DNA of 28,417 nucleotides from Oligoflexales bacterium (GTDB taxonomy: Bacteria > Bdellovibrionota_B > Oligoflexia > Oligoflexales > Bog-1112): assembly GCA_045105515.1 (NCBI GenBank), contig JBGCDR010000088.1:1-28417 (forward strand). Direction: 5' to 3'. The position numbers and the translations under genes are program-made. Of the stretch, positions 21,204 through 23,975 are shown in pieces; position 1 is the first letter of the stretch, and the number at the start of each line of letters is the position of its first letter. The notes under the pieces were generated by a model. That model ran no database searches and was not told the origin of the DNA. It saw only the letters and a program-made list of their open reading frames with translations.

Positions 21204-23975
21204 TTGAACACTGTAATCTATTTTTTTAGCTGGATGTTAAGTTTGTATATAAAAGGCAAATCATCTGCAATTACTAATTTAACTAAATTTTTAATGGCTG
21301 CCATGATCATGTGGGTTTGCCCGACTAGTTGTAAAAAAATACCTCAAACTCCTGACAGTGGGTTGCAAGAAAAAAATATAGAATTAATAACATCAAATCT
21401 TGATGCAAATATATTTAATATTGTCATGGATTCACACTTTTTTGATTCGTTTGAGCTAACCAGCGAAGATCCGGAAATTTCTCTTGAAAAATTATCAAAT
21501 ACCAAAGATTTAGCTTATAGCAAGATAAGTACTAGTTTGATTGAAGATTCTTCCCCTCTTCGTGCATTCGCAGACGAATTGGGAGAGGTCACTATTTTAT
21601 ATTCACTGGATGATCTGGAAATAATTGATGATGCCTCCGCTTCATATTATCAAAATGAGCATCCTTTTGGTGAAACTTTAAAGCTAGCCCGCAGGGTACA
21701 TAGTGGAAGCGTAGCACCTAGCTTTAGAGACCCTGTTATTCGATTAGAGAATGTAAAAGATTTAGAAAAGAGGATTAGATGGTTGAATGATGATCATAGC
21801 GATTGGTACACCCCGAGACAACTTGAAAGAAGAAAGCAACTCGAAGATTTAGCTGATGTACATAAAAAAGACTTGGTATTATATCGATTTGTGGACAAAG
21901 CGATTGCTAATAAACAGTTAAAATCACAAAGTTTTTCAGATTCTGATTACAATCATTATTTCAATCAATTTGAGCCAGGTCCCGCTTTGGGTAGGCGTGC
22001 TGGTCGAGGGGTCTACGCTGTTAAGCCTGGTTTATTGTATTCGGTTGGAAATATAGCAGAAAACTCTCTGAAAAGAGCCGGTGTCAAGGTGCTGCCTGGA
22101 GAAGCAACTGGTCTTTTAAAAATAATTGTAAAAAAAGGGACAAAATACATAGATTTGAAAGATCCACGTGTATTGAAAAGGTTAAGAAAAAATAATTTTT
22201 CCATGGAAGAAATAAGTTATCTTGACCCAAATATTAGCATCAGATTCCATGAATTTCCGAAGCATGATTTTTGGGTACTTAAAAATATCAGCGATCGAAG
22301 AAATGTACTGATTAAAAAACCAAATCCTAAAGATTTTGAAAATTTAACTCCCGCGCAAGTGTCAAAATTTCGTAAAAATGGGCGAGAATTGGCCGCTCAC
22401 TTTAAAAAATTTGCACCAGAAAATATCCAAAAAATTACATTGAAAAAAAATATATTTAGTGCGGCTGGAAGCTTAATAATCAAACCTCTAGTAGCTATTT
22501 ATAAATTTATTTTGAACAGTTCGAAAATTCATCAGCGCCTCGCCAATCTCTTTTATTATGCTCAACATGCTCGACTTGCTAAATTAAATGAAAATTCAAA
22601 TCTCAGTATTATCCTAAATAAGAAAACAACTCTGTTTGATTTGAAAAAATCTCTGGATAACAAAGAAATAAATTATTATGATCCGAATAATGGAGAATTA
22701 AATTTTCGTAATAATAGAGAAACTATTTTTTTTGCAGGAGGTATAGAAGAACTAAACAAAAGATTCCCACCTCCAAAGTATAGATTAACAACTGATAGCA
22801 TCAAAAAGCAAGACATAAAAAATGTGCTCGCAAGTCATGTGAAAAGTACTGAAGGTATTAGTCTACCAGAATCTAATCCAATTCTTTTTGTTGATATTAT
22901 AAGGAATCCCAATATGGGAAAAATAAATAACATTCCATCAAATCAAAAAAAATTTAAAGCAAATGAAATTATCCATTATTATGACAAGCACTATTCAAAA
23001 CCATATTCTTTGGAAAATAGGACAGTTAGCTATAAGAATGATGTAGATATTCTTGTTTCTCATCGGCCCAATCACGGCCTGTCTCATGGAATTAGAAGCG
23101 GAGCTTTGTCCGTGGATTCAGTGATGCTAGCGAATACTCACTTAAAACATACGGAATTTGGTAGGTTTTGTGAGAAAAATATCCTTATGGACCCAAACTT
23201 TATTAAAAAAATTGAACATTATTCAATCTCAAATAGAGCAGCTAGAATAGGGGAAGGTGCAGATAAAGATATTGGTGGTACAACTCAGCGAAATGCTTAT
23301 AATTTTTTCAATGATCCTTATTCCAAAATCATAATACCCAACGTTATAGAGAGAAAAAAGTACGCGAGGGCCTTTTTTACTGTCTTACAGATAAGATCAG
23401 GGAAAAAAATGAATGCATTCCTAAAAAAAAGTAATAAGAATATTACGAATGATGAAAAAAAATTTATTGATTCATTGGATCTGGAAAAAAATCCTCTGAC
23501 TAAAGAAGAGAAGTTTCTTGGTACGATAAGCTACTTGGGGCATTTCAACGATCATAGAAGAATCAATTTTTGGAGTCGAAAGGTTTCATTTGCTGAACAG
23601 AGAGAAATGCTTAAGGGAGTAGGTTTAGGAAATCGAGAGGCTAATAGCTTAATTTATACACTTTGGACCCGTTCTGGAACCTATTTGAAAGCAACAGGAG
23701 CTGGTGATGCAGATATTTTTACTCACTTAGGAAAACGCCAATCTGCATGGGAAAAATATTTTGGATCGATAAAAAATAGATATAGCCAGACTAAAATTAG
23801 TTCTCTTTATGACAATAGATATAGGCATGTAAGAAGTGAAGATCTATTTTTTAAATCTGAAATGGATGCTGTATTTACCTATGAAAATATTAAGATTGAA
23901 CAGGCTCATATGAGCTATGACCGTCAGCTTTTGAATAAATTTGAGTCCGAAATTGATTATTTGATGTATAAATAG
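21204..23975 (+). CDS. Large putative lipoprotein: ADP-ribosyltransferase-like domain plus SidE/DupA-like phosphodiesterase (HD-like) domain, paralogue 1
   Basis: Lipobox-like PTSC-KK. ART-like motifs LVLYRF, GRGVYA and GLLKIIVKKGTKYIDL. PDE-like motifs HRPNHGLSH, ARIGE, HFNDHRR and YLKATG. The start codon is uncertain (TTG 21204 or ATG 21234). Confidence 0.7.
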   Translation: MNTVIYFFSWMLSLYIKGKSSAITNLTKFLMAAMIMWVCPTSCKKIPQTPDSGLQEKNIELITSNLDANIFNIVMDSHFFDSFELTSEDPEISLEKLSNTKDLAYSKISTSLIEDSSPLRAFADELGEVTILYSLDDLEIIDDASASYYQNEHPFGETLKLARRVHSGSVAPSFRDPVIRLENVKDLEKRIRWLNDDHSDWYTPRQLERRKQLEDLADVHKKDLVLYRFVDKAIANKQLKSQSFSDSDYNHYFNQFEPGPALGRRAGRGVYAVKPGLLYSVGNIAENSLKRAGVKVLPGEATGLLKIIVKKGTKYIDLKDPRVLKRLRKNNFSMEEISYLDPNISIRFHEFPKHDFWVLKNISDRRNVLIKKPNPKDFENLTPAQVSKFRKNGRELAAHFKKFAPENIQKITLKKNIFSAAGSLIIKPLVAIYKFILNSSKIHQRLANLFYYAQHARLAKLNENSNLSIILNKKTTLFDLKKSLDNKEINYYDPNNGELNFRNNRETIFFAGGIEELNKRFPPPKYRLTTDSIKKQDIKNVLASHVKSTEGISLPESNPILFVDIIRNPNMGKINNIPSNQKKFKANEIIHYYDKHYSKPYSLENRTVSYKNDVDILVSHRPNHGLSHGIRSGALSVDSVMLANTHLKHTEFGRFCEKNILMDPNFIKKIEHYSISNRAARIGEGADKDIGGTTQRNAYNFFNDPYSKIIIPNVIERKKYARAFFTVLQIRSGKKMNAFLKKSNKNITNDEKKFIDSLDLEKNPLTKEEKFLGTISYLGHFNDHRRINFWSRKVSFAEQREMLKGVGLGNREANSLIYTLWTRSGTYLKATGAGDADIFTHLGKRQSAWEKYFGSIKNRYSQTKISSLYDNRYRHVRSEDLFFKSEMDAVFTYENIKIEQAHMSYDRQLLNKFESEIDYLMYK

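Follow-up and report, generated by a model that had tools for sequence, protein, structure and literature searches.

Two paralogous proteins of an Oligoflexales bacterium joining an ART-like domain to a SidE-type phosphodiesterase

Phosphoribosyl-linked modification by an ART together with a SidE-type phosphodiesterase (PDE) is treated as a Legionella speciality in a 2026 review (PMC13720258) and in a survey of Legionella ARTs (PMC12522546). Two paralogous genes in the window examined here (the whole stretch of DNA analysed, 28,417 nucleotides from an Oligoflexales bacterium) had been predicted to encode proteins which retain the complete catalytic residues of a SidE/DupA PDE. This raises the question of whether these domains do belong to the SidE family and, if so, which reaction they may serve in a lineage other than Legionella. 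Among the literature matches listed for SidE phosphodiesterase in Oligoflexia, Bdellovibrionota or Oligoflexales, nothing on the subject appeared in the titles and the starts of the abstracts, and among the matches listed for PF12252 or SidE_PDE there was a Legionella engineering preprint only.

Gene organisation and domain layout

The two paralogue genes and the gene between them are co-oriented and tightly packed (Table 1). The intergenic gaps on either side of the intervening gene are only 12 and 10 nt, and for this reason the three genes are probably co-transcribed. A scan for promoters and terminators gave 36 versus 30.1 +/- 5.8 and 3 versus 3.6 in shuffles, and was thus not above shuffles. 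In the product of the intervening gene, a putative lipoprotein-type signal (LLGSC) is accompanied by two hydrophobic segments and a stretch of acidic residues. No family was assigned to it by Pfam, NCBIfam or PHROGs searches, and with this query a match was present in 0/15 other genomes of the host family. With respect to gene neighbourhood, conserved neighbours of the paralogue genes were not found, and the orthologue in genome G005 lies in a different context.

Both paralogues are laid out as an ART-like domain followed by a helical linker and a PDE domain. As judged from their translations, both are probably intact, exported multidomain enzymes with putative lipoprotein signals, and a Shine-Dalgarno sequence precedes the TTG start which gives paralogue 2 its lipobox. 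Over 900 aligned positions the paralogues share 43% identity, with regional values of 31% in the N-terminus, 56.5% in the ART-like core, 29% in the linker, 54% in the PDE and 34% in the tail. The segment originally flagged, 23061-23705, falls within the PDE core of paralogue 1.

Table 1. Coordinates of the paralogue genes, the intervening gene, and their domains and motifs in the window
Feature	Nucleotides	Strand	Residues	Remarks
Paralogue 1 gene	21204..23975	+	923 aa	Start TTG 21204, alternative ATG 21234 (translation)
Paralogue 1 N-terminus				Hydrophobic, up to ...MWVCPTSCKK; weak putative lipobox (by-eye reading)
Paralogue 1 ART-fold-like domain	21789..22343	+	~196-380	
Paralogue 1 SidE-type PDE core	22956..23708	+	~585-835	H624, H628, E684, H780, R786, YLKATG
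Paralogue 1 NHGLSH	23070-23087		623-628	H624/H628
Paralogue 1 RIGE			681-684	E684
Paralogue 1 HFNDHRR			780-786	H780/R786
Paralogue 1 YLKATG			827-832	
Intervening gene	23988..25220	+	410 aa	
Paralogue 2 gene	25231..27879	+	882 aa	Start TTG 25231, AGGAG 7 nt upstream
Paralogue 2 N-terminus				MVKLYYFSIAFFIAIIGCKK; putative lipobox (by-eye reading)
Paralogue 2 ART-fold-like domain	25726..26280	+	166-350	
Paralogue 2 helical linker	26281..26865	+	~351-545	Long helix predicted at 386-449 (model)
Paralogue 2 SidE-type PDE core	26866..27630	+	546-800	R580, H583, H587, R640, E643, H738, D741, R744, Y785
Paralogue 2 NHGLSH	26974-26991		582-587	H583/H587
Paralogue 2 RIGE			640-643	E643
Paralogue 2 HFNDHRR			738-744	H738/R744
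Paralogue 2 YLKATG			785-790	

The phosphodiesterase domains

The motifs which the original prediction had placed in both paralogues were located by script on the translations, and all of them lay at the residues and coordinates claimed. The spacing of 60 residues from the first His to the Glu was confirmed in both proteins, and the His-x5-Arg match was likewise found in both. The segment from the Glu to the second His is longer, as had been noted, with 96 and 95 residues in paralogues 1 and 2 versus 67 in the SidE family (aligned SdeA chain). The alignment attributes the greater length of this segment to a subfamily-specific insertion of ~30 aa within it; a second insertion of the subfamily follows ATGxGD and is modelled in part at pLDDT <50.

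Searches with the Pfam SidE_PDE HMM (gathering cut-off 25) gave 31.2 bits for paralogue 1 and 38.4 bits for paralogue 2, and a whole-genome scan for this family (PF12252) returned 2 matches, both in the window, with no further copy. When a profile of 48 PDE sequences was compared with the PDB, all 21 of the 21 matches at E <= 0.01 were to Legionella SidE, SdeA, SdeC, SdeD/DupA or lpg1496, the best with an E of 8.9e-15. A family profile was needed for this detection, since a single-sequence phmmer search of the PDB with paralogue 2 gave chance-level matches only (E >= 0.6). NCBIfam held no family for either paralogue, and a word-index homologue search gave 3 clusters, 2 of them the window's own proteins. 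In the search for organisms with relatives, the RPNHGL[AS]HGxRxG block, written as a degenerate DNA pattern, had 0 matches and a single-protein scan found none. Among the genomes of the host phylum which were searched, a SidE-type PDE was present in 5/131, all in one family.

In the profile alignment, H583, E643, H738 and R744 of paralogue 2 correspond to SdeA chain positions 65, 128, 195 and 201, the spacing of which (63, 67 and 6) is that of H277, E340, H407 and R413. Following the original prediction, we take R413 of SdeA to be the arginine of His-x5-Arg. The catalytic residues given for SdeA are E340, H277 and H407 (Shin et al. 2020, PMC6941232), the main text of which mentions R413 nowhere (0 occurrences).

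The model of the paralogue 2 PDE domain (pLDDT 82.8, pTM 0.85) was matched by PDE domains from SidE, SdeA, SdeC, SdeD/DupA and lpg1496, with 27 SidE-family entries at Z 16.3-19.2 (rmsd 3.0-4.8 A, 221-270 residues aligned). The PDE range of lpg1496 in this comparison was 298-591. The next structural class, PDE4-type, reached Z <= 8.8. On the profile searches and this model, both PDE domains are true members of the SidE family. In the 48-sequence alignment, which has a mean column identity of 18%, the catalytic columns are conserved in 47/48 sequences for H583, 44/48 for H587, 46/48 for E643 and 48/48 for both H738 and R744, and by homology these five residues probably line one pocket. The view that the motifs are invariant while their flanks diverge was borne out beyond chance by the regional identities of the paralogues.

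DupA/DupB (SdeD) and lpg1496 share the PDE fold with the window proteins at Z 18.1-18.9. The catalytic triad of DupA is H67, E126 and H189, with a His-to-Glu distance of 59 versus 60 in the window (PMC6941232). DupA consists of little besides its PDE (construct 4-345, PMC6941232), and lpg1496, whose PDE construct starts at residue 297 (PMC6941232), has additional domains on the N-terminal side. The window proteins differ in being ~900 aa long and in carrying an ART-like domain fused to the PDE.

The ART-like N-terminal domain

According to the structure model, residues ~166-350 of paralogue 2 are a second domain, of an unnamed family, which the original prediction had missed. The best Foldseek match of the domain model (pLDDT 83.0, pTM 0.70) was MbcT, with an E of 4.3e-4 and a probability of 1.00, and the next matches were diphtheria toxin, NatT, exotoxin A, cholix toxin and PARP. 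In an unbiased structural comparison with 48,161 chains, in which model residues 35-239 were taken as the core, all core-covering rows among the matches listed were of the ART fold (Z 6.5-8.4); MbcT, diphtheria toxin and exotoxin A lay at Z 6.7-8.4. The best of these scores, Z 8.4 to MbcT, is middling and in a range flagged with caution, and because the Z values are middling we consider an ART-type split beta-sheet core likely rather than established. The ART fold of the corresponding domain in paralogue 1 was transferred from the paralogue 2 model; paralogue 1 scored 215.9 bits against the N-domain HMM built here, and its domain carries the motifs LYRF, GRGVYA, KGTKYIDLKD, IRFHEF and FWVLK.

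Residues were mapped to strands from the secondary structure of the model, which in paralogue 2 puts R198 in strand 1 and G238-x-G240-V-Y241 in strand 2, with D287, R318 and K330 further along the domain. Across 20 aligned sequences the strand-1 Arg was present in 17/20 and the tyrosine of Gly-x-Gly-[IVL]-Tyr in 19/20, and the Asp of KGTKxID was invariant, as were a Gly, a Lys and a basic position. In the third N-domain copy of the genome the strand-1 Arg is replaced by Ser. No conserved catalytic Glu (the Glu of H-Y-E or R-S-E) was found on the fifth strand in the 20 aligned sequences. The one Glu with partial conservation lies on strand 3 (9/20); both window proteins, like their close relatives, have Arg or Lys there. 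A conserved Ser-Thr-Ser is likewise lacking from the window N-domains, and so is Glu-x-Glu. Conservation between the paralogues is highest in the N-domain core, which keeps the Arg, Gly-x-Gly-x-Tyr, Asp and Lys, and this speaks for a functional rather than a decayed domain.

With respect to named families, 0/19 N-domain proteins matched Pfam ART or RES families at E <= 1, the RES domain being, as we take it, Pfam PF08808. A profile of the N-domain compared with the PDB gave chance matches to helical proteins only and no ART-fold protein, and PHROGs held no match for the domain. An ESM Atlas feature search gave scores of 0.88-0.90, which are leads only, and the clusters among the matches listed included some with PARP (16%), Tox-ART-HYD1 (71%) and Arr-ms (99%).

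The likeness to the MbcT/RES NAD+ phosphorylase and to the diphtheria-toxin-group ARTs, which are the best structural matches, applies to the N-domain core only. As in MbcT, the strand-1 Arg and the strand-2 Tyr are kept and there is no conserved catalytic Glu. The window domain differs in that it has no detectable sequence relationship to MbcT/RES and no antitoxin partner, and in being exported (as predicted) and fused to effector-type domains, namely the PDE here and a Fic domain in another, third protein from this genome.

Many secreted multidomain proteins carry the N-domain at their N-terminus, and its fusion to a PDE was also observed in P0005, P0007, P0008 and P0011 (identity 73% to ~28%). 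This unnamed domain is a candidate for a new module of toxins or effectors. No N-domain was found with the HMM built here in the PDE proteins of genomes G007, G008 and G001. The N-terminal region of the G007 protein gave a sub-threshold Scabin-like Pfam match (E 0.054), and YRG / STTS / ERE motifs, read by eye, are therefore the basis for calling it an ART.

Proposed reaction and alternatives

The all-in-one ubiquitin ligases of the SidE family are arranged in the order DUB-PDE-mART-coiled-coil, in which an mART of the R-S-ExE type follows the PDE. The window proteins have the same PDE family and fold as SidE, SdeA, SdeB and SdeC (Z up to 19.2, with H/E/H/R aligned) and likewise combine an NAD-utilising fold and a PDE in one polypeptide, a comparison which is confined to the domains. 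They differ in their reversed domain order, with the ART-like domain, the sole other domain, preceding the PDE, in the clade of their ART, and in having no DUB or ART Pfam match and no ExE.

Legionella pneumophila Lem26 (Lpg2523) has, by its published layout (PMC11696984), the same order of parts as the window proteins, running from an mART at the N-terminus through a helical bundle to a PDE at the C-terminus (PMC12977470, PMC11696984). The PDE catalytic His is kept in the window proteins too, and the logic proposed for Lem26 is the same, ADP-ribosylation followed by PDE trimming (PMC12977470). In cells, an ADP-ribose signal was reported for Lem26 only with the PDE-dead H545A mutant, and the autophagy and yeast-toxicity phenotypes which were measured did not require the PDE (PMC12977470, PMC11696984). 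While the Lem26 ART is a canonical R-S-ExE enzyme (Arg222-Ser257-Glu292-x-Glu294, PMC11696984), the window N-domain is MbcT/diphtheria-toxin-like, without the ExE motif and with no Pfam ART match. Lem26 is also a Dot/Icm substrate, whereas the window proteins have Sec or lipoprotein-type signals (read by eye), and its host belongs to a different phylum.

We infer that the most likely function of the paralogues is NAD+-dependent ADP-ribosylation followed by trimming to phosphoribose, a mechanism known from Lem26 and, as a crosslinking reaction, from SidE. The N-domain would attach ADP-ribose from NAD+ to a target, and the His pair and Glu of the PDE would then cleave the pyrophosphate of the ADP-ribose with release of AMP, so that phosphoribose would stay on the target or the phosphoribosylated target would be passed to a hydroxyl group. 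The enzymatic activity, target and site of action of the paralogues are putative throughout. That an ART-fold N-domain, a linker and a catalytically complete SidE PDE together carry out such a Lem26-like modification and trimming seems to us evenly poised between right and wrong. The original caution that a transferase and an eraser cannot be told apart from the PDE sequence was fair; the fused ART-like domain, which had been missed, tilts the odds towards a PDE coupled to a writer.

The main weakness of the two-step model is, as the alignment suggests, an ART-like domain without a conserved catalytic glutamate. In addition, NAD+ is scarce outside the cytoplasm, and as the putative Sec/lipoprotein signal places the proteins outside this NAD+-rich compartment, delivery into another cell must be assumed. 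Kept catalytic residues are also no guarantee of activity, since all eight Legionella PDE proteins keep them and the newly identified ones were reported to give no ubiquitination from ADPR-ubiquitin (Shin et al. 2020, PMC6941232). Further points against the model are the incomplete conservation of the strand-1 Arg, the middling ART-fold Z values, the lack of Pfam ART matches, the two insertions in the PDE of this subfamily, the variable gene neighbourhood and the Lem26 phenotypes which did not need the PDE.

It is unlikely, but deserves to be kept in view, that the proteins are instead NAD+/ADP-ribose-degrading toxins which act on small molecules and have no protein target. The N-domain would then be an NADase or an MbcT-like NAD+ phosphorylase, and the PDE would cleave free ADP-ribose or ADP-ribose-1''-phosphate to AMP and ribose phosphate. 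MbcT, the best structural match of the N-domain, relies on Arg27 and Tyr58 and has a Gly where ARTs have their catalytic Glu (PMC6436930), a pattern which the N-domain shares in keeping the Arg and Tyr without a conserved Glu. A small-molecule substrate is also favoured by PDE homologues fused to NUDIX (P0056) or HIT-type DcpS_C (P0011) domains, which act on nucleotide pyrophosphates, and by the crystallisation of lpg1496 with nucleotide, as given in the title of the PDB entry. Against this, the Pfam (0/19) and PDB profile searches returned no sequence link to RES/MbcT, other PDE fusions carry protein-modifying ARTs of the R-S-E type, and the SidE-family PDE activities cited as characterised in PMC6941232 and PMC12977470 all act on protein-linked ADP-ribose or phosphoribose.

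We consider it improbable that the PDE removes phosphoribosyl or ADP-ribosyl linkages in the manner of DupA/DupB, with the N-domain as a dead ART fold used for binding only. DupA and DupB do perform removal with the same H-E-H site (PMC6941232), the N-domain has no conserved Glu, and the window proteins have Arg or Lys where relatives have Glu. However, an eraser that is exported depends on a writer, which was not found, the genome scan for SidE_PDE having returned only the two window matches, and the conservation of the N-domain core (56.5%), with its Arg, Gly-x-Gly-x-Tyr and invariant Asp and Lys, also speaks against a dead domain. A search of the host genome (91% complete) gave no Macro domain PF01661.

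It is very improbable that the PDE domain has nothing to do with SidE chemistry and is a common HD/PDE-type hydrolase that depends on metal, or a cyclic-nucleotide phosphodiesterase; this is the reading by which the original prediction was to be refuted. In its favour, PDE4 catalytic domains align with the model at Z 8.5-8.8 over ~188 residues, which points to a distant shared helical architecture. Against it, SidE-family entries reach 19.2, SAMHD1 and dNTPase had Foldseek probabilities of <0.1, the Pfam and PDB profile searches returned the SidE family only for the PDE domain, and an HD doublet is not visible in the motif blocks.

The SidE-type PDE family is thus present, with intact active-site residues, in a lineage other than Legionella, and in the window it is joined to a different type of NAD-fold partner behind a predicted export signal. 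If ADP-ribosylation followed by trimming is indeed what these proteins do, the two-step protein-modifying chemistry may also be present in an unrelated, exported protein family of an uncultured bacterium, and if they are active, ART plus PDE chemistry would be older or more widely traded than thought. Nothing was seen that would mark this bacterium as a pathogen, and its proteins would for that reason offer simpler access to the PDE step. A tentative extension, which we think rather unlikely to hold in full, is that this exported non-Legionella family, with its Glu-less ART fold and SidE PDE, would represent a separate invention of NAD+-dependent phosphoribosylation, non-T4SS and with crosslinking possible. 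Were this so, the SidE PDE would be a portable ADP-ribose-trimming module which appears to have been recruited repeatedly, its partners including the MbcT/diphtheria-toxin-like domain, R-S-E ARTs, NUDIX and HIT. A further PDE homologue, P0044, is fused to ADPrib_exo_Tox, with a score of 27.2 bits versus a cut-off of 23.4.

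The SidE-type phosphodiesterase domain

Both paralogues (43% identity over 900 aligned positions) carried the motifs of the complete SidE/DupA phosphodiesterase (PDE) catalytic set that the original prediction had assigned to them, each at the residue numbers and coordinates proposed, with a His-to-Glu spacing of 60 in both and a Glu-to-His spacing of 96 in paralogue 1 and 95 in paralogue 2. The Pfam SidE_PDE HMM, suggested at that time as a check, recognized both proteins above its curated cut-off of 25 (31.2 bits for paralogue 1, 38.4 bits for paralogue 2). When 1.84 billion representatives were searched exhaustively with HMMER, 88 proteins matched at E <= 1e-3, of which 11 were at <= 1e-10 and 5 at <= 1e-30. 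These matches fell into two groups, on query residues ~172-375 and ~545-800, which shows two separable domains.

For the PDE domain, both window regions were aligned with 46 short homologues (48 sequences in all) picked from ~70 PDE matches, each of at most ~440 aa, with longer ones omitted. The profile of this alignment matched 21 distinct PDB sequences at E <= 0.01 (best E 8.9e-15), every one of which was Legionella SidE, SdeA, SdeC, SdeD/DupA or lpg1496. The columns of H583, E643, H738 and R744 (paralogue 2 numbering) aligned with positions 65, 128, 195 and 201 of SdeA chain 6g0c_A, whose spacings of 63, 67 and 6 are identical to those of SdeA H277, E340, H407 and R413. The relevant section of Shin et al. 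2020 (PMC6941232) gives E340, H277 and H407 as the catalytic residues of SdeA; their equivalents in DupA are given as H67, E126 and H189. H738, R744, R580, R640 and Y785 were each kept in 48/48 aligned sequences, H583 in 47/48, E643 in 46/48 and H587 in 44/48. The window subfamily is distinguished from other members by a ~30-residue insertion between the Glu and the second catalytic His; a second insertion follows ATGxGD and contains a stretch with pLDDT below 50 in the predicted model.

The AlphaFold2 model built from this alignment had a pLDDT of 82.8 and a pTM of 0.85. The 29 Foldseek matches listed to rank 38 were all to Legionella SidE-family PDE domains or lpg1496 (E 1.1e-3 to 0.5, probability at least 0.84), and the entries below them, including SAMHD1 and dNTP triphosphohydrolase, had probabilities of at most 0.10. 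With VIA-align, 27 SidE-family entries gave Z values of 16.3-19.2, whereas PDE4-type catalytic domains came next at Z <= 8.8, which rules against an ordinary HD hydrolase. A better fit to HD hydrolases had been named as part of the outcome that would speak against the original prediction; Foldseek and VIA-align both favoured the SidE family. Pfam, the PDB profile search and the model comparison support its reading as a SidE-type PDE, and the window domains almost certainly belong to SidE_PDE. That they are also catalytically competent is predicted as reasonably likely. Within the phylum, SidE_PDE was found in 5/131 genomes searched, all 5 within the window's own family, where they include 4 of the 15 other genomes; the full-length protein was matched in 6/41 relatives' genomes, the window's own included.

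An N-terminal domain resembling ADP-ribosyltransferases

Residues ~166-350 of paralogue 2 (N-domain) could be assigned to none of the Pfam, NCBIfam or PHROGs families, and 0/19 N-domain proteins matched a Pfam ART family at E <= 1. The model from the 19-sequence alignment (pLDDT 83.0, pTM 0.70) was matched best in Foldseek by the M. tuberculosis NAD+ phosphorylase toxin MbcT (E 4.3e-4), followed by the diphtheria toxin catalytic domain (3.2e-3), NatT, exotoxin A, cholix toxin and PARPs. VIA-align gave Z values of 8.4 for MbcT, 7.3 for exotoxin A and 7.1 for diphtheria toxin. In an independent scan of 48,161 chains, those of the matches listed that spanned the N-domain core were all ART-fold proteins (MbcT Z 8.4, diphtheria toxin 7.1, Albireti toxin 6.9, SAIP 6.9, exotoxin A 6.7, PE-like toxin 6.6, cholix toxin 6.5), and the remaining matches listed covered only a long helix (model residues 243-311, one from 219). 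The predicted structure points to an ART fold, which we consider quite likely and put no higher because the Z values are middling.

With respect to conservation in the trimmed alignment of 20 sequences, the first-strand Arg (YRF/YRW) was kept in 17/20, the Tyr of Gly-x-Gly-[IVL]-Tyr in 19/20, and the Asp of KGTKxID, the basic residue of VAVKY/MRFH and the Lys of WWVLK in 20/20 each. No conserved Glu was observed among these 20 sequences; the partly conserved Glu of LIEV was present in 9/20, and Arg or Lys took its place in the two window proteins and in six relatives. MbcT is alike in keeping the Arg and Tyr without the catalytic Glu: the pertinent part of PMC6436930 describes Arg27 and Tyr58 as required and a Gly at the ART catalytic Glu position.

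Domain fusions and comparison with Lem26

The N-domain and PDE architecture recurred in four further proteins, namely P0005 (73% identity), P0007 (37%; an intact 879-aa gene of relative genome G005), P0008 (28%) and P0011, which has an additional DcpS_C/HIT domain (27.2 bits). Elsewhere the N-domain stood alone or formed the N-terminal part of other secreted proteins. In a third copy, encoded elsewhere in the window's own genome, it occupies residues 577-756, following a Fic/DOC domain at 398-448 (39.6 bits), and Ser replaces the strand-1 Arg. A partner scan of 18 longer PDE homologues and three ORFs from relatives' genomes found SidE_PDE above cut-off in 21/21 proteins. P0044 combined it with pentapeptide repeats and ADPrib_exo_Tox (27.2 bits against a cut-off of 23.4) and P0056 with NUDIX (27.1 bits); the ART match of P0014 was sub-threshold (19.5 bits against 22.3). 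Pentapeptide repeats excepted, the partners in P0056, P0011 and P0044 handle NAD, ADP-ribose or nucleotide pyrophosphates. Relatives G007, G008 and G001, which are of the same bacterial family as the window, also have SidE_PDE proteins, joined to other partners; the only Pfam match in the N-terminal region of the G007 protein was Scabin-like (E 0.054).

The closest described architecture is that of Legionella Lem26, for which the domain description in PMC11696984 gives an N-terminal R-S-ExE ART (1-337), a helical bundle and a PDE (494-779), although the ART clade differs and the window N-domain lies outside that of Lem26. SidE-family ligases have the reverse domain order and a DUB domain, and DupA and DupB, as characterized in the corresponding part of PMC6941232, are erasers made up almost entirely of the PDE domain. 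From these layouts, the window proteins are predicted to work most like Lem26. What is added here is a Lem26-like yet distinct "ART-fold then PDE" family, with a predicted export signal, in a non-Legionella lineage. The cell experiments described in PMC12977470 detected ADP-ribosylated host proteins only with PDE-dead Lem26 H545A, read by its authors as trimming of ADP-ribose to phosphoribose by the PDE. In the window proteins, a step by the ART-like domain would be followed by a PDE step, a coupled model to which we give about an even chance. Degradation of small-molecule NAD+ or ADP-ribose is the rival explanation, possible but rather unlikely. Two-step coupling is the reading we prefer.

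Gene layout, export signals and neighbouring genes

The window is the whole of contig C88 (28,417 bases), from a 6.29 Mb assembly of 461 contigs that is 90.9% complete. Positions 21204-27879 hold three genes in the same orientation, separated by 12 and 10 nt. For the middle product, Pfam, NCBIfam and PHROGs gave no family, and a search of 15 related genomes found no counterpart; a role as partner or immunity protein is possible. Paralogue 2 has a TTG start with AGGAG 7 nt upstream and the N-terminus MVKLYYFSIAFFIAIIGCKK. All signals were read by eye: that of paralogue 2 was clearer than that of paralogue 1, the middle gene product has one ending ...LLGSC, and Cys-ending signals were also seen in relative P0010 and the G005 protein.

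Coordinates of genes and loci (window contig unless another locus is given)
Feature	Position	Strand	Remarks
459-aa small-GTPase protein	98-1477	-	Pfam Ras 109.4 bits, Roc 62.5 bits
Response-regulator receiver and CheX-type phosphatase fusion	1693-2688	+	Pfam 51.8 and 35.2 bits
Metal-efflux block	10689-19188	+	read from translations
118-aa ORF	19492-19848	+	sigma-70 region 2 at 43.7 bits; region 4 sub-threshold
Paralogue 1	21204-23975	+	923 aa
410-aa predicted lipoprotein	23988-25220	+	between paralogues; acidic stretch, two hydrophobic segments
Paralogue 2	25231-27879	+	882 aa
Third N-domain copy, 1312-aa signal-bearing protein	G000 (window's genome) contig C165, L019:2489-6427	-	91.2 bits, N-domain HMM built here
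G007 SidE_PDE protein	L012:1-2334	+	N-terminal YRG, STTS, ERE motifs, read by eye
G008 SidE_PDE protein	L011:325-3003	+	C-terminal region, weak HipA_C match (E 0.023)
G001 SidE_PDE protein	L013:3-1700	+	interrupted by contig end

The 118-aa ORF may represent an ECF sigma factor gene, either truncated or assigned the wrong start. The 459-aa protein is a eukaryote-like GTPase encoded by a bacterial genome, with a Ras/Rab-type domain at ~53-212 that is preceded by a hydrophobic N-terminal stretch and followed by a 250-aa tail with no domain assigned. In the metal-efflux block, the membrane-fusion protein has CPMHP...CPxCGM motifs in repeats, and the 722-aa P-type ATPase shares that Cys motif; the block also encodes an outer-membrane factor and a 1107-aa RND pump. 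Its GC content is 0.40-0.44, compared with 0.31-0.35 in the effector region (21-28 kb).
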